From sequence record MF158045: 64,000 nt of DNA; one strand, written 5' to 3'. The DNA is from Shigella phage Sf22. The notes under the pieces were generated by a model that saw only the letters and a program-made list of their open reading frames with translations, searched no databases and was not told the origin of the DNA. Positions 32,818 to 37,849 of this stretch are shown here, one piece after another. A program made the position numbers and the translations under genes. Numbering within the stretch: the stretch's first letter is position 1; the number at the start of each line of letters is the position of its first letter.

Positions 32818-33018
32818 ATGGTACAAAAATTAATGGCACTTGTTAATGCCATAAAAGGTAATAAAAAACGTATAGCTTTTACTATTTCTGCTATGGTAGG
32901 AATTTTACTCTGGAACTTTATTCTATCACCTGTTGCAATTGCGCATGGTATTAATATTCCAGTAGTTACTCTTGATACATTTGTAGATTTAGCATTTGCT
33001 TTAGTTGGGTTGATTTAA
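32818..33018 (+). CDS. Small membrane protein (66 aa) on plus strand
   Basis: Strong SD AAGGAGG 6 nt before ATG; two predicted hydrophobic helices; only plus-strand ORF with a good RBS in the early region. Confidence 0.5.
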   Translation: MVQKLMALVNAIKGNKKRIAFTISAMVGILLWNFILSPVAIAHGINIPVVTLDTFVDLAFALVGLI

Positions 33019-34043
33019 ATCTTAGCATATTTAGATAGCCGCATTTTAGCCATCAACCCTTGGGCAATATTATTTTTCATATATTCCATAATTTGTTTAG
33101 GGGTTGCACCTTCCTTTCTAATCATATCATTGACATCTTTTGATTTCCAGGGAGATTTATCCCAAAACATAACCCTTTCTCCTGCATCAACTAATTTAGT
33201 CATTCGCTTAATAGTGTCAGGATGACGAGGTTCATTATCTAAAACCCACACACGTCTATCTTTAAATGGAACAACTTCTAGGTCTAATTGACCACCCGTA
33301 ATAGCTATACCATTTTCAATAAAAAGTGAATCTATAGGTCCTTCTAGAACATATACATCACCATCTTTAACTCGTTCGACTCCATAGATTTTTGTTGCTT
33401 CAGGATAAGCTTTGATGGTGATATATTTTTGAGGAGCATCTTTCTTTAATGCACGTCCTTGAAAAGACTCAGCTTTTCCATTAGCATTATAAATTGGAAT
33501 AACAAGACGAGGCTCAGAAATTTCCTTTTTGTATGTTCCTGGTGCTATGCTATTAACTAATTTAGGCCATTCGGTTGTAAACCAAAGATATTTCCATTTA
33601 TCCTTTGGAATACAACGAGCTTTTACATATTTTATAATTGCATGGTCTTCCGCCAGTTTATCTAATCGAACACATGACGGAAGAGATTTAATTATTTTCT
33701 TCTCAGGTTGTTTAGGAAGTTCTTTAGGTTTTTCTACTGGACGACTTTTACCTTTTTCTTTTCTTATTTCAAAGATATACTCACGATATAAATCAGGTTC
33801 AAACTCCTTTAAATATATTCCGATTGGTGCATGATAGTTACAGTTATAACAATGAATATTTCCTTCATTATTATCACCATAATACCATCCACGAGCTTTA
33901 TTCTGGTCGGTTTTTGAATCTCCACAAACAGGACATCTAAACCGTAATTTAAAAGTTGAACTATTATTTACTTGTGTGAATTTAGGTAAATGAGCTAATG
34001 CACGGTATGCAAACTCATTATCAATCCAAGGTATTGATGACAT
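33015..34043 (-). CDS. 61: DNA primase gp61
   Basis: 342 aa (T4 gp61 342 aa); N-terminal zinc ribbon CPVCGDS...CYNCNYH. Confidence 0.9.
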   Translation of the reverse strand: MSSIPWIDNEFAYRALAHLPKFTQVNNSSTFKLRFRCPVCGDSKTDQNKARGWYYGDNNEGNIHCYNCNYHAPIGIYLKEFEPDLYREYIFEIRKEKGKSRPVEKPKELPKQPEKKIIKSLPSCVRLDKLAEDHAIIKYVKARCIPKDKWKYLWFTTEWPKLVNSIAPGTYKKEISEPRLVIPIYNANGKAESFQGRALKKDAPQKYITIKAYPEATKIYGVERVKDGDVYVLEGPIDSLFIENGIAITGGQLDLEVVPFKDRRVWVLDNEPRHPDTIKRMTKLVDAGERVMFWDKSPWKSKDVNDMIRKEGATPKQIMEYMKNNIAQGLMAKMRLSKYAKI

Positions 34044-34046
34044 TTT

Positions 34047-34211
34047 TACTCTTCTTTTTCTTTAGATTCCTCTTTTTTCTTTTTAGGAATCTGCTCAGGG
34101 CCTTTATTTACTACAGCGCCTGACGTTGTTCCAGTAGAGATATTTTCAGGATTACCACCTGAATCTCCAGCGACCATATCTTCTTTAATAAATTCTTTAT
34201 ATGTTTTCATA
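34047..34211 (-). CDS. Small hypothetical protein (54 aa), Lys/Glu-rich C-terminus
   Basis: Manual translation MKTYKEFIKEDMVAGDSGGNPENISTG... Confidence 0.35.
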
Positions 34212-34256
34212 TTAACCTCTATTCATAAAAGCATTAAAAATTTGGTCATCAATAGA
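34211..34256. repeat. 46-bp direct repeat, copy 1 (3-prime end of 61.1-like ORF)
   Basis: ATTAACCTCTATTCATAAAAGCATTAAAAATTTGGTCATCAATAGA, one mismatch to the copy at 34569-34614. Confidence 0.9.
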
Positions 34257-34568
34257 TGGAATAGCAACCTTTTCGGCATCATTTAGCAAATCATTAATTT
34301 CATCAGATAGCATAACACATGTGCCTTTATTTCCTGTAATTGTTACTGCACAATTACGAACGTTTTCTTTATCAAATTTTAGGTTAATATTTTCGTAGTG
34401 AAAATCCTTTAATGCCGAATATATCTTTAAAATGAAATTGTCTTTTACTACAATAAACCCAACTTCACTATTAAAACGTGGTTCATGGAAACTGTAATAA
34501 ACCTTTTCATCTATAAAATCGTATGAAATTTTTTCCATTTTTAAATATGAAAATTCAGAACTATACAT
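34212..34568 (-). CDS. Hypothetical protein (118 aa), 61.1-like
   Basis: ORF track; C-terminus SIDDQIFNAFMNRG shared with the next ORF. Confidence 0.5.
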   Translation of the reverse strand: MYSSEFSYLKMEKISYDFIDEKVYYSFHEPRFNSEVGFIVVKDNFILKIYSALKDFHYENINLKFDKENVRNCAVTITGNKGTCVMLSDEINDLLNDAEKVAIPSIDDQIFNAFMNRG

Positions 34569-34614
34569 ATTAACCTTTATTCATAAAAGCATTAAAAATT
34601 TGGTCATCAATAGA
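34569..34614. repeat. 46-bp direct repeat, copy 2 (3-prime end of 61.2-like ORF)
   Basis: Near-identical to 34211-34256. Confidence 0.9.
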
Positions 34615-35196
34615 AACATTTACTTTAGACTGTTTTTCAGATGGCAATTCATATCCACATATTACAATTTTATGATCAATATTAAAATACACAGAAGCAA
34701 TATGATTAATGATATTTTCAGTGAAGTCTAAATCGACATCAATATCTTTTTGACCAAAGCCCAAAGGATAAATAATGCGAGTAATTCGATTATCTTTAAC
34801 AAAGATTCCACCGACATACTCTGTACTGCGTTTAAAGTCTACACGCCGACGAAATGAAAAATATTCAGGCTCTCTATGAGCTCGGCTCATAGGACACAAC
34901 GAGTAACTAGAATAAGAGATGTCAAATCCTACACCTTCGATATGAGCCAAAGTGTTATGATTAAACCAATTATAATCGTACGCCAAATCCATTAGATTAT
35001 AATATGTAAAAGGCACCGGATTAACATCATTAGTCACAAGCATGTAATTAGCAACTGCTATAATTTCATTGTTTTTAACGAATACAAACCGTGATTGATG
35101 CGAATGACCTGGACCCGCGTTTTCACGATTAATGATATAACACTGGGCACCTTTATATTTGTATGTATCTTTGCACTTGTGCATTTGATAGAGCAT
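34570..35196 (-). CDS. Hypothetical protein (208 aa), 61.2-like
   Basis: ORF track; C-terminus SIDDQIFNAFMNKG shared with the previous ORF. Confidence 0.55.
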   Translation of the reverse strand: MLYQMHKCKDTYKYKGAQCYIINRENAGPGHSHQSRFVFVKNNEIIAVANYMLVTNDVNPVPFTYYNLMDLAYDYNWFNHNTLAHIEGVGFDISYSSYSLCPMSRAHREPEYFSFRRRVDFKRSTEYVGGIFVKDNRITRIIYPLGFGQKDIDVDLDFTENIINHIASVYFNIDHKIVICGYELPSEKQSKVNVSIDDQIFNAFMNKG

Positions 35197-35489
35197 TATT
35201 CACCTACCACTTCAGCGATGATATTTTTGTTATTAAAGTTTTTATCGCAATACAGAACATAATTATACTGCATTACACCACCAGACTTAAGTTGTTTTTG
35301 CACTTCAGCTTTCATTTCAGGACGATCACGCTCAACGATATTCATAATATCCGCTTCAATTTGAGTTTCAACTTCAGTCTGATCCGCAGTCATAGACCAT
35401 TCGCACAAATCTTTATCATAACCTGCCATAGCAGGCTGAGCAGCACAAGAAGCTAAAGCAAAAATTGTGGCAAAGATAAATTTTTTCAT
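35196..35489 (-). CDS. sp: Spackle periplasmic protein (superinfection exclusion, gp5 lysozyme inhibitor)
   Basis: 97 aa with signal peptide MKKFIFATIFALASCAAQPAMA; position between 61 and 41; T4 Sp is 97 aa. Confidence 0.75.
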   Translation of the reverse strand: MKKFIFATIFALASCAAQPAMAGYDKDLCEWSMTADQTEVETQIEADIMNIVERDRPEMKAEVQKQLKSGGVMQYNYVLYCDKNFNNKNIIAEVVGE

Positions 35490-35549
35490 GATAATCTCCT
35501 CAGTAGTTTATGTTTATATAGTATCTCAATTTCCAACAAAAATAAACAG

Positions 35550-35849
35550 TTATTTTAAAACTTCTGCGTAATCACATGTTACAAACTGTTTCTCTAGCTT
35601 AACGATCTTACGAAAATACCTTTTACACTGACGAATCTGTCGCTTCGTAGGACGTACAGCAAACTTAATAAATTCCACTAGACCAAATGGAGGACTTTCT
35701 TCTGCTGGAATATCTAACACCAATTCCCACGTATCTGCAATAAGTGCTTTGAATTGCGTATTTTTCCTGACGTTATACGGAGTAGGTTTAAATAAAACAA
35801 TATGCATATTATCCTCGGCAATCCACTTCGCACACTTTCTTGTCATCAA
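35550..35849 (-). CDS. Hypothetical protein (99 aa), 61.4-like
   Basis: ORF track; position. Confidence 0.5.
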   Translation of the reverse strand: MMTRKCAKWIAEDNMHIVLFKPTPYNVRKNTQFKALIADTWELVLDIPAEESPPFGLVEFIKFAVRPTKRQIRQCKRYFRKIVKLEKQFVTCDYAEVLK

Positions 35850-35991
35850 TGAAAGCTTTAACTAATGCTTTATTAACTTCAGCATACTGAGTAGTAGCCC
35901 ATTGAACGTCATCTTTCATCATTGTGGTTTCTTTAGTAAACATGCTTTCATTCTTAAACCACCCCATAAAAACTACCTTTACCAATTCCAT
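35809..35991 (-). CDS. dmd: Dmd antitoxin (inhibitor of host RnlA/LsoA toxins)
   Basis: 60 aa, MELVKVVFMGWFKNESMFTKE...; size and position adjacent to gene 41 match T4 Dmd. Confidence 0.8.
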   Translation of the reverse strand: MELVKVVFMGWFKNESMFTKETTMMKDDVQWATTQYAEVNKALVKAFIDDKKVCEVDCRG

Positions 35992-36049
35992 AACAATCTC
36001 CTCATTTAACCAACAAGACTACTATACCATAGTCTCGTCAGCTTGTAAA

Positions 36050-37477
36050 CTAAAATTTTAATTCATTCGCCAAAGCATCTAACTGAGCTCGAGTCGATTC
36101 GTTTCTTTGATAGCGATTCTGTTCAGCCTGAATCTGTTGTGAACCTGCTACCTCACTCACTTCAGTTGGAGTAGAATCTTGTTCAATTTCTACCCATTTC
36201 TGATTTCCCTTTTGAACACCCATCAAAAACTTATTCCACTTATTCTTATCGCCATATCGTGATTTGATTTGCTTAATGAGTTGTTGTTCAGCAGCTGCTA
36301 GCTCCTCGGTTTCAATGACCGCAAGCATAAAATCAGCTGTTGCTGGAAGACCAGCAGATTCTGCAATATCGCTCATGTTAACATCAGAAGAGTCCCAAGC
36401 TTGTTTACCGACCTGTGCTGCAGTCCAAAGAACAGTTTCGGTTTCAACAGCCAGAGCACGCAATTCCTCTGCGATAGCTTTAACAGTTGTGTAACTATTT
36501 TCTGAATAAACTCGGATGCGACAAGATTTACAAATACCCAGATAGTCGACAATAATGATTGTTGGAACAAAATTCTTTTTGAGCTTTAATTCATTTAAAA
36601 GTGATCGAAATGTATTAGCATCTGCTCCACCAGTAGGGTACTGTTTAACGATTAAACGACCAAGAGTAGATTTCTCACGCCATTTTTCCATTTTTCCTTT
36701 ATACTCGGCGTAAGAAATATGTCCATCATCAATATCGTCAAGAGAAACATCGAGCATATTAGCATCAATACGTTTAGCGCAGACTTCTTCTGCCATTTCC
36801 ATGGAGATATAAAGAACGTTATGACCAAGCTGCAAATAATCTGCTGCTAATGAACAAAGTCCTAATGATTTACCAACGTTAACGCCAGCCATTAAAACGT
36901 TCAGTGTTCCAGTCTCAGCTCCGCCTTTAGTAATTTTGTTTAGAATTCTGAGTTTAAATGGAACCTTACGAGCTTTATTCATATAAGATAGCCAACGCGC
37001 TTCGTAGTCATCCATCCAATCATGACCAACGTAACTATCAAATGAAATTGATAATGCTTGGCGCATGATGTCAGGAATAGCACCAACATCCGGCATTTTC
37101 TTATTTCGTTTTTCCGGAGGAAGTTCAGCATTAGTTTGAATTTCGATTATTTTAGACGTAGCATTAAACATCGCCCTTTGCTGAACATATTTTTCTGTTT
37201 CTTTTACTAACCAACTGTGGTCTTCCGGAGAATCAGCTAGTTTTGAAATAAGTGTTTTTACACCAGAATATTCTGTTTCAGTAAATGAACTATTTTCTAA
37301 TGCAACATTTAACGCATTAATAGATGGAACGCTATGGTACTCATTAACATGAGATTTAATTAATTTGAATGTATTTTTAGCTGGACCACTTTCAAAATAT
37401 TCTGAATCCATATATGGCCAAACTTTTGAAAAATAAGCTTGATCAAATATAAGATGAGAAAGAATAATTTCTACCAC
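36050..37477 (-). CDS. 41: Replicative DNA helicase gp41 (DnaB-like)
   Basis: 475 aa (T4 gp41 475 aa); Walker A GVNVGKS. Confidence 0.95.
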   Translation of the reverse strand: MVEIILSHLIFDQAYFSKVWPYMDSEYFESGPAKNTFKLIKSHVNEYHSVPSINALNVALENSSFTETEYSGVKTLISKLADSPEDHSWLVKETEKYVQQRAMFNATSKIIEIQTNAELPPEKRNKKMPDVGAIPDIMRQALSISFDSYVGHDWMDDYEARWLSYMNKARKVPFKLRILNKITKGGAETGTLNVLMAGVNVGKSLGLCSLAADYLQLGHNVLYISMEMAEEVCAKRIDANMLDVSLDDIDDGHISYAEYKGKMEKWREKSTLGRLIVKQYPTGGADANTFRSLLNELKLKKNFVPTIIIVDYLGICKSCRIRVYSENSYTTVKAIAEELRALAVETETVLWTAAQVGKQAWDSSDVNMSDIAESAGLPATADFMLAVIETEELAAAEQQLIKQIKSRYGDKNKWNKFLMGVQKGNQKWVEIEQDSTPTEVSEVAGSQQIQAEQNRYQRNESTRAQLDALANELKF

Positions 37478-37486
37478 ACTTACTCC

Positions 37487-37849
37487 TTAAAAGAATTTAA
37501 ACTTTTTCTTTGACCTTTTATTAAATGCATCTTGTAGTTGCATTGTAATACATTTTTCTACATGAGGAGCTAACTCAGCTTTTCTTTCTTGGTCAAGAAC
37601 AGCAAAGTCCATTACAACCTTTCCATCAACCCAATCCAGTTTAGTTACATACACTATATGTGTAGAACCATCTTCTAGTTTAATGACAATCTCCTGGATA
37701 ACATTTTCCATGGCAGATTTAATTATCTTAAGAGATTCATTAAAAAGACGTTCTTTTCTTTCTTCTTCCCCCTCCGAAGAGGGGGATTCATCGATAATTT
37801 CTAGATCTAAATCTAAATCATCTTTATTCATTAAATTCTTCCATATCAC
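37487..37849 (-). CDS. 40: gp40-like protein (head vertex assembly chaperone) by position
   Basis: 120 aa between 41 and uvsX. Confidence 0.6.
   Translation of the reverse strand: MIWKNLMNKDDLDLDLEIIDESPSSEGEEERKERLFNESLKIIKSAMENVIQEIVIKLEDGSTHIVYVTKLDWVDGKVVMDFAVLDQERKAELAPHVEKCITMQLQDAFNKRSKKKFKFF

Follow-up and report, generated by a model that had tools for sequence, protein, structure and literature searches.

Gene content and order between genes 41 and 61

The analyzed window is a 64,000-nucleotide stretch from Shigella phage Sf22 (MF158045), a T4-like phage (Tequatrovirus). Positions 34000-37500 of the window are 99.4% identical to phage Kha5h, and many T4-like phages are about 97% identical to the region and share its gene order. 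The following features were identified:

33015-34043: gene 61 (primase), flanking the island
34046-34210, minus strand: gene 61.1, 54 aa, the last island gene before gene 61
34212-34568, minus strand: gene for a 118-aa protein, which T4 lacks; a homolog of the AdfA C-terminal half
34570-35196, minus strand: adfA (gene 61.2), 208 aa, anti-DarT factor A (Pfam AdfA, identity to T4)
35196-35489, minus strand: sp (spackle, gene 61.3), 97-aa precursor with a 22-aa signal peptide (Pfam, identity to T4, PDB)
35550-35807, minus strand: tifA (gene 61.4), 85 aa (identity to T4, Pfam DUF7279, PHROG 2375)
35809-35991, minus strand: dmd (gene 61.5), 60 aa (Pfam Dmd, identity to T4, PDB match)
35812-35816, minus strand: GAGGA ribosome-binding site of tifA, inside the last dmd codons (minus-strand read ...TGCCGAGGATAATATGCAT...)
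36021-36049, minus strand: promoter-like site in the spacer between gene 41 and dmd, TTTACA-17-TATAGT with TG upstream
36050-37477: gene 41 (helicase), flanking the island

The minus-strand trio dmd, 61.4 and sp occupies exactly positions 35196-35991 between the helicase and primase genes, as had been proposed in a preliminary description of this DNA. The cluster was there placed upstream of the primase, but adfA, the 118-aa adfA-like gene and gene 61.1 intervene between sp and gene 61. The same genes are found in the same order between genes 41 and 61 in the published T4-like island, which was named the "anti-TA island" of T4-like phages in 2022 (dmd, tifA, adfA; PMC9391042); compared to the T4 island there is one extra gene here, that for the 118-aa protein, as in about 300 other tequatroviruses. 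The gene content of the island differs between genera, as is typical of accessory genes. Pfam and PHROG matches back all four assignments (TifA, Dmd, Sp and AdfA), and the matches of the trio dmd, tifA and sp far exceed what chance would give. No NCBIfam model was found for any of the five island proteins, and a terminator scan identified none within the island.

The Dmd protein is covered over its full length (1-60 of 60) by the Pfam family Dmd (PF17587; E = 1.8e-45, 153.5 bits, cutoff 27) and matches the PDB sequence 5hy3_B, "Antitoxin Dmd", at 9.6e-37. It is identical at 59 of 60 positions to T4 Dmd, the antitoxin mimic for RnlA/LsoA that has been crystallized with RnlA (PDB 5HY3, chain B). 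The sole change, I22T, is an allele common to about a third of the tequatrovirus records, T2 included. This 98% identity suggests that the protein mimics an antitoxin, binding the endoribonucleases RnlA/LsoA and blocking these toxins. Likewise, the Sp protein matches Pfam T4_Spackle (PF25676; E = 1.3e-44, 151 bits, cutoff 27) and the PDB entries 6x6o, 6xc0 and 6xc1 (8e-62), with the mature form 7cn6 aligning from residue 23. It is identical to its T4 counterpart at 96 of 97 positions, the change being K53E. The features of the T4 gp5-lysozyme inhibitor (gp61.3; PDB 6X6O, 6XC0/1, 7CN6/7) are conserved here, namely the signal peptide, the Cys29-Cys81 pair and the gp5-contact residues S32, M33, T34, A35, Q37 and N76, as named in PMC7677548, and K53E lies outside these contacts. 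At 99% identity to the crystallized T4 protein, it probably inhibits the gp5 tail lysozyme in the periplasm and so brings about superinfection exclusion. Both gene assignments in the preliminary description thus agree with Pfam, with identity to T4 and with the PDB matches.

The adfA gene, the start of which overlaps the sp stop codon (TAATG), is the next gene of the island. Its product matches Pfam AdfA (PF23813) over positions 1-208 of 211 (2.3e-135, 449 bits) and is identical to the T4 protein at 199 of 208 positions; the family has an anti-DarT function (PMC9391042, PMC11257639). The segment ...ENIINHIAS... can be aligned to ...ENNINHIAS... of the RB69 type, and its residue H165 probably corresponds to residue 164 of RB69 AdfA, the DarT1-neutralizing His allele, according to a numbering offset deduced from a primer for RB69 adfA beginning at MHKNAPFK.

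The 118-aa protein matches the AdfA profile in positions 113-211 only (2.3e-8, 34.1 bits) and shows 35% identity to the AdfA protein of the window over 103 aa (BLASTP, E = 9e-10). The two C-termini are near-identical, SIDDQIFNAFMN(R/K)G, and a Cys is present in the 118-aa protein at the critical His position of AdfA. Since it corresponds to the C-terminal half rather than to the full-length architecture, we consider it a partial paralog and not an AdfA protein. It matches PHROG 4122 (6.7e-73), and the gene is present in 331 phage records. The sampled records hold no function label for it ("hypothetical" or equivalent), with one divergent match labeled gp61.2. Gene 61.1 encodes a protein identical to T4 gp61.1 at 52 of 54 positions, with a match to PHROG 1823 (7e-34) and to no Pfam family.

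The promoter-like site has the top sigma-70-like score within 33900-36200 (10/12 with the TG extension). In the 76-nt stretch 35985-36060, two differences to T4 were observed, both outside the promoter hexamers, and the Shine-Dalgarno sequences are also conserved with T4. In T4, the two-gene dmd-tifA locus is transcribed from an early promoter that precedes dmd (PMC9391042), and the site in the window probably corresponds to this promoter.

The tifA gene and its product

The middle gene of the trio had been described as an "unknown" ORF of 99 aa. [quoted passage not shown] The presence and place of the ORF were correctly given, but not its length, which is 85 aa from an ATG at 35807. The dmd stop codon (TAA, 35811-35809) is followed by the tifA ATG (35807-35805) two bases past the stop, with one base between.

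The 99-aa ORF at 35550-35849 consists of tifA and a spurious 14-codon extension, which begins with a TTG (35849) located 41 nt within dmd. The frame is open from this TTG, which has been picked by automatic gene callers in several database entries (P0001, P0002, P0006), but we consider it very unlikely that the real product is an N-terminally extended TifA of 99 aa. The TTG lacks a preceding GGAG-like ribosome-binding site, whereas the ATG has GAGGA, and the 14 added codons overlap dmd in a different frame. M1 is invariant in divergent homologs, in which N-terminal extensions vary or are missing, the gene is annotated at 85 aa in T4 and Kha5h, and deletion of the ATG abolished the function of T4 tifA (PMC9391042). 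The TTG start was therefore rejected.

In T4, TifA inhibits ToxN, the type III endoribonuclease toxin of the toxIN defense system; tifA by itself allows T4 to form plaques again on +toxIN cells and relieves the toxicity of ToxN, and the protein co-precipitates ToxN, with the T2, T6 and RB69 homologs also being active (PMC9391042). In 2023 TifA was shown to bind RNA, via a basic helix, and to trap ToxN on the RNA of the cell; the variants P53A T54A and K55A R56A R59A no longer bind RNA or ToxN and no longer give rescue (PMC10853763). Every residue shown to be required in T4 TifA is kept here (...VRPTKRQIRQCKRYFRK...), including the Pro-Thr helix cap P53 T54 and the basic cluster K55, R56 and R59, as is F41. 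In one homolog alignment (A1), P53, T54, K55, R56, Q57, I58 and R59 are invariant, and in another (A2) T54-R59 are invariant and P53 nearly so. The gene has the same length as in T4 and the same spacing after the dmd stop codon; it is located directly downstream of dmd, its Shine-Dalgarno sequence lies inside dmd and the promoter-like site upstream is kept with T4. An AlphaFold2 model (pLDDT 76.6, pTM 0.60) contains strands at residues 2-6, 27-33 and 43-49 and a helix at 55-84, and the fold matches the published description, in a comparison of prediction with prediction rather than with a solved structure.

The TifA family is small and restricted to phages. When 1.84 billion representatives were searched exhaustively with HMMER, only 10 matches at E <= 1e-3 were retrieved, and word-indexed searches gave 7 and 16. 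The matched proteins include one of 2435 aa (P0017), for which no matching stretch is reported. A scan of IMG/VR recovered 5 related loci only, which are too few for population statistics. No significant structural relative was found with Foldseek against the PDB (best E = 1.6), there was no PDB sequence match, and the matches in BFVD were solely to uncharacterized TifA-family phage proteins.

Neutralization of, or rescue from, ToxN has been demonstrated for the TifA proteins of T4, T2, T6 and RB69 only, and divergent homologs from other phages neutralized none of the tested ToxNs, so that family membership alone is no guarantee of activity against a given ToxN. The copy described here, with R43L and I83V, probably still inhibits ToxN. 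RB69 TifA, a more potent ToxN inhibitor, belongs to the same family, has the basic-helix core PTKRQIRQ and is located beside dmd, and the TifA protein of the RB69-like Mosigvirus PTK is 57% identical to the copy in the window. The RB69-type proteins carry H41 and K43 and are shorter at the C-terminus, without the extension of about 15 residues, whereas the copy in the window is of the T4 type, with F41 and a long C-terminus, and would thus be expected to be the weaker, T4-like inhibitor. T4-type TifA with F41 inhibits plasmid-borne toxIN only weakly (PMC9391042).

Protein differences and ToxN motifs in the dmd-tifA mRNA

A homolog of tifA occurs in about 640 phage records. A TifA protein identical to that in the window was found in no phage record, the maximum being 98.8%. 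Allele frequencies were counted indirectly, via haplotype matches. A 61-nt haplotype with the L43 codon had an exact match in Kha5h only, among 312 records, while I83V is the common allele outside T4 itself. Position 43 is R in T4, K in the RB69-like phage PTK and L in Pectobacterium phage PM2. A functional retuning, in which R43L, bordering the loop that faces ToxN, changes the potency of TifA or redirects it to another ToxN variant encountered in the natural hosts of the phage, would fit with the rarity of L43 and with effects at residue 41, two positions away, which sets potency both ways: F41S and F41H strengthen T4 TifA, and H41F and H41S weaken RB69 TifA. Also, the loop is conserved among close relatives only, and a role in determining which ToxN is recognized has been proposed for it. 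In our model, however, residue 43 opens strand 3 and is not at the loop tip, and a single substitution may represent neutral drift in one lineage; we consider such a retuning unlikely.

The T4 dmd-tifA mRNA contains the ToxN motif GAAAU at nt 61 and nt 428, the latter at the 3' end of tifA, whereas the dmd-tifA mRNA of the window contains none. Dmd and TifA differ from their T4 counterparts at three residues in total, and two of these changes, Dmd I22T and TifA I83V, erase both T4 motifs; the probability that 19 random differences strike both motifs is 0.037. In a third relative (L005), the dmd motif has been removed by another, synonymous change. With the loss of GAAAU, the counter-defense mRNA might escape cleavage by the toxin that its product targets. 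Zero motifs in 442 nt has a probability of P = 0.21, and GAAAU is not depleted on the sense strand of the window (228 observed versus 225 expected). An allele-specific 41-nt megablast was used to count the motif states among records: at the dmd site, 128 records have GAAAC and 245 have GAAAU, and at the tifA site, at least 95 records have GAAGU and 31 have GAAAU. Both motif states are thus common standing polymorphisms, and ablation of the T4 tifA site had no effect (PMC9391042). Selection against ToxN motifs is accordingly a post hoc and unproven explanation, which we do not adopt.

A probable T4-type counter-defense island

The region very probably represents a T4-type counter-defense island between genes 41 and 61, with a dmd-tifA bicistron, sp and adfA, in which TifA inhibits ToxN as an RNA-binding protein. 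The dmd-tifA bicistron would be transcribed from the early promoter upstream of dmd, and Dmd (60 aa) would bind and block the RnlA/LsoA RNase toxins. TifA is predicted to form a small sheet of three strands that packs against a long, basic helix at the C-terminus. This helix, with its P53-T54 cap and K55, R56 and R59, would bind RNA, while the side of the sheet and loop near residue 41 may contact ToxN; the published interface between ToxN and TifA comes from AlphaFold and is of limited confidence. Once phage infection has depleted the toxI RNA antitoxin and ToxN is freed, TifA would keep the toxin inactive by locking it into a ribonucleoprotein complex with plentiful RNAs of the cell, such as 16S rRNA, leaving the phage transcripts uncut. 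Spackle would be exported to the periplasm and inhibit the gp5 tail lysozyme of superinfecting phages, and AdfA would target DarT toxins.

Two other explanations for the middle gene have to be weighed against the proposed protein-based inhibition of ToxN. The native antitoxin of ToxN is an RNA and phage PhiTE evades toxIN via a toxI-like RNA (PMC10853763), and the two GAAAU motifs in the T4 mRNA could likewise suggest that the dmd-tifA locus works as a toxI-like decoy or a competing ToxN substrate. For T4, this is refuted by experiments which show that tifA acts as a translated product: a recoded tifA with 55 of 258 nt changed was active and the ΔATG variant was inactive, and ablation of the 3' ToxN site was without effect (PMC9391042). 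In addition, the mRNA of the window is free of GAAAU and no Rfam family was found in 33000-37500, and an RNA-acting locus is highly improbable here. A housekeeping role in replication might be suspected from the position between the helicase and primase genes and from the label "DNA polymerase" on the homolog in a few GenBank records (H78, H80, H93). These labels are however attached to an 85-aa protein with a sole Pfam match to DUF7279 and no polymerase domain. Moreover, the variable gene content across genera is that of accessory genes, and T4 tifA mutants are viable and defective on toxIN hosts only (PMC9391042), which makes a replication function extremely improbable. Neither a housekeeping role nor an erroneous sp or dmd assignment has thus emerged, and the earlier guess that the middle ORF counters attack, like its two neighbors, is borne out by the ToxN neutralization described for its T4 ortholog (PMC9391042, PMC10853763).

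For T4, the literature already covers these genes, what the middle ORF does and by which mechanism, and the idea of an anti-toxin island, and the observation is therefore correct but ordinary, carrying little weight as a discovery. Its practical value is in annotation. The tifA homolog is labeled "hypothetical protein" or, wrongly, "DNA polymerase" in the sampled phage records, and neither the Pfam entry (DUF7279) nor the PHROGs contain the TifA function, which shows that the "unknown" flag on this ORF reflects a database lag rather than a biological gap. The copy in the window also has a few minor details of its own, namely R43L, the lack of GAAAU motifs and the AdfA half-paralog of 118 aa next door. 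It is quite unlikely, but conceivable, that the lineage shared with Kha5h has adjusted its ToxN counter-defense through TifA R43L and a GAAAU-free mRNA, with the half-paralog perhaps serving as a further anti-toxin. For researchers working on toxIN and DarTG counter-defense, these three features are cheap candidates.

Gene layout between genes 41 and 61

The window derives from a T4-like myovirus, and the sequence from 34000 to 37500 is 99.4% identical to Enterobacteria phage Kha5h (Tequatrovirus) and 95-99% identical to several hundred T-even phages. Every gene of the region is carried on the minus strand. The gene order is the same in the Kha5h annotation, and also in the T4 annotation with the exception of the 118-aa gene.

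Genes of the region, in transcription order
uvsX, minus strand, upstream of gene 40
gene 40, minus strand, between uvsX and gene 41
36050-37477, minus strand, gene 41, helicase
35809-35991, minus strand, dmd, 60 aa
35550-35807, minus strand, 61.4 (tifA), 85 aa
35196-35489, minus strand, sp, 97 aa
34570-35196, minus strand, 61.2 (adfA), 208 aa
34212-34568, minus strand, 118-aa gene, absent from T4
34046-34210, minus strand, 61.1, 54 aa
33015-34043, minus strand, gene 61, primase

An early-promoter-like site (TTTACA-17-TATAGT with an upstream TG) is located at 36049-36021, and both the site and the operon layout are conserved with T4. Neither Rfam families nor terminator-like sites were identified in the island, and no NCBIfam models were found for these island proteins. 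In the spacer between tifA and sp (35535-35541, minus strand), the window has GTTTAT versus GTTTAC downstream of tifA in T4 and Kha5h (C>T). The T4 element could give a promoter-like TTTACT-17-TACTAT ahead of sp, and a promoter downstream of tifA is mentioned in PMC9391042.

Identity of the genes dmd, 61.4 and sp

The preliminary description had recognized a cluster of sp, a 99-aa ORF and dmd at 35196-35991, the ends of which coincide with the stop of sp and the start of dmd. Pfam matches, concordant PHROGs searches and near-identity to the T4 proteins demonstrate that all three are real genes and not chance ORFs. Sp (Pfam T4_Spackle, 1.3e-44) is identical to the T4 protein at 96 of 97 residues (K53E) and Dmd (Pfam Dmd, 1.8e-45) at 59 of 60 (I22T), and each sequence matches its own crystal structure (6x6o, 8e-62, and 5hy3_B, 9.6e-37, respectively). 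The 22-residue signal peptide of Sp is retained, with the mature chain 7cn6 aligning from residue 23, as are Cys29/Cys81 and the gp5-contact residues S32-A35, Q37 and N76 that have been described previously (PMC7677548).

The length of the middle gene was corrected from 99 to 85 aa. The longer version results from mechanical ORF calling at a TTG (35849) that is located 41 nt inside dmd and lacks a ribosome-binding site, and it was rejected. The ATG at 35807 follows the dmd TAA by two bases and has GAGGA in front of it, and the gene is annotated as 85 aa in both T4 and Kha5h. Met1 is invariant among homologs down to 33% identity, while the N-terminal extensions predicted by some gene finders vary between homologs or are missing. 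In T4, deletion of this ATG abolishes function (PMC9391042).

We identify the middle gene with high confidence as an ortholog of tifA. The predicted protein (Pfam DUF7279, 4.2e-20) is 97.6% identical to the experimentally tested T4 protein (83/85; R43L, I83V) and carries F41, P53, T54, K55, R56 and R59; the PTKRQIR core shows little or no variation among the homologs collected. An AlphaFold2 model based on a 13-sequence alignment (pLDDT 76.6) contains strands at residues 2-6, 27-33 and 43-49 and a helix at 55-84. Sequence searches recovered no solved relative, a Foldseek search of the PDB yielded no related fold (best E=1.6), and a search of BFVD recovered nothing other than uncharacterised members of the TifA family from T4-like phages. 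The family is small: a search of 1.84 billion proteins retrieved 10 representatives at E<=1e-3. One protein of 2435 aa (P0017) scored E=7.6e-14 against the 85-aa TifA with no matched stretch reported; it may be a fused ORF, a mis-called ORF or a low-complexity artefact.

The suggestion that the middle ORF has a function related to those of its neighbors was borne out by published experiments on T4, in which 61.4 is the ToxN inhibitor TifA. Srikant et al. (eLife 2022, PMC9391042) evolved T4 on E. coli with the type III toxin-antitoxin system toxIN and repeatedly obtained tandem amplifications of the dmd-61.4 locus. By itself, 61.4 restored plaquing and rescued cells from ToxN; translation was required, with the ΔATG variant inactive and activity retained after recoding of 55/258 nt. 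[quoted passage not shown] Guegler et al. (NAR 2023, PMC10853763) worked out the mechanism: rescue and the binding of both RNA and ToxN depend on the basic helix at the C-terminus, which has P53-T54 as its cap and contains K55, R56 and R59, and ToxN assembles with TifA and RNA (16S rRNA in particular) into a large complex that is inactive. The potency is set by residue 41 on the ToxN-facing loop, with F41S and F41H giving a stronger T4 TifA (PMC10853763). The near-identity of the two proteins suggests that the TifA of the window would likewise inhibit ToxN.

Variants in tifA and in the dmd-tifA mRNA

Codon 43 of tifA (35679-35681, minus strand) is CTA (Leu) in the window versus CGA (Arg) in T4. 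A 61-nt query centred on this codon matched 312 phage records, of which only Kha5h was identical; most records among the matches listed differed by one base. Among the phage records, the closest TifA reaches 98.8% identity to that of the window, and none is identical. The residue is R in T4 and the IMG/VR relatives, K in the RB69-like phage PTK and L in PM2. In the AlphaFold2 model it starts strand 3, just past the loop with the potency-tuning residue F41, from which it is two positions away; it is not mentioned in PMC10853763. It is possible that R43L alters the potency or specificity of TifA. A 72-aa relative (P0007) also has L43 and is frameshifted after residue 45 (…PPFGLVEWNLLSLLF…), which removes the PT/basic helix. 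Its contig is 28.9 kb long, and the frameshift reflects either natural pseudogenization of tifA or an assembly error.

The cleavage motif of ToxN(Ec) is GAAAU (PMC10853763). The T4 dmd-tifA mRNA contains two such motifs, at dmd E21-I22 and tifA E82-I83, and both are missing from the window (35927-35931, dmd codons 21-22, and 35560-35564, tifA codons 82-83; minus strand) because of the changes Dmd I22T and TifA I83V. The probability that 19 random differences would strike both motifs is 0.037, and in one relative (locus L005) the dmd motif has been removed by a different, synonymous change (GAA>GAG). Both states are common polymorphisms at the two sites: in the phage collection, the motif-less allele was found in 128 records versus 245 with GAAAU at the dmd site, and in at least 95 versus 31 at the tifA site. 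The sense strand of the window shows no depletion of GAAAU (228 observed, 225 expected), and function was unaffected when the tifA motif was ablated in T4 (PMC9391042). Since both alleles are common and there is no overall depletion, selection against ToxN motifs was not demonstrated.

The AdfA paralog and the accessory island

Gene 61.2 encodes AdfA (Pfam AdfA, 2.3e-135; 199/208 residues identical to T4). This anti-DarT factor was described by LeRoux et al., with further discussion in PMC9391042 and PMC11257639. By an offset deduced from a published primer, H165 of the window AdfA appears to align with residue 164 of RB69 AdfA. The allele with histidine at position 164 reportedly confers the ability to neutralise DarT1, and the RB69 wild type has Arg (PMC11257639).

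The product of the adjacent 118-aa gene is paralogous to AdfA over the C-terminal half of the latter (35% identity, E=9e-10). Its C-terminus is almost identical to that of AdfA (SIDDQIFNAFMN(R/K)G; near-identical C-terminal sequence SIDDQIFNAFMNRG), and both genes are joined to their downstream neighbor by TAATATG. The protein has a Cys in place of the AdfA His that governs DarT1 binding. A tblastn search located the gene in 331 phage records; 25 of these were sampled, with no function assigned in any. It is a reasonable candidate for an anti-toxin gene in the published "anti-TA island", outside the sp-dmd span.

In other genera, dmd, tifA and sp remain between genes 41 and 61, with genes shuffled and added. 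In the Mosigvirus PTK (L008, 2063-5648), imm adjoins sp, and there are three extra small ORFs; the Dhakavirus UP19 (L009, 2334-4672) has an extra 46-aa ORF between dmd and tifA; and in the Pectobacterium phage PM2 (L010, 1784-3370) sp is located upstream of tifA and dmd is not annotated. This is typical of a variable accessory island across the Tevenvirinae genera.

The middle ORF had been described as unknown, which is not upheld since its function was published in 2022-2023; it seemed so because public annotation, Pfam and PHROGs lag behind this literature on TifA. The family is listed as DUF7279 in Pfam and as of "unknown function" in PHROGs, and the homolog is labelled "(putative) DNA polymerase" in NC_041919.1 (HP3), OK272473.1 (JLBYU31) and MW250787.1 (UPEC07) and is "hypothetical protein", unnamed or unannotated in all other sampled records. 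The argument from its location between sp and dmd has likewise been published, and for 61.4 it has been confirmed. The genes dmd, tifA and sp are parts of the published T4 anti-toxin and exclusion island and already known, and the remaining novelty is confined to the rare R43L allele, the weak mRNA-motif pattern and the uncharacterised neighboring paralog.
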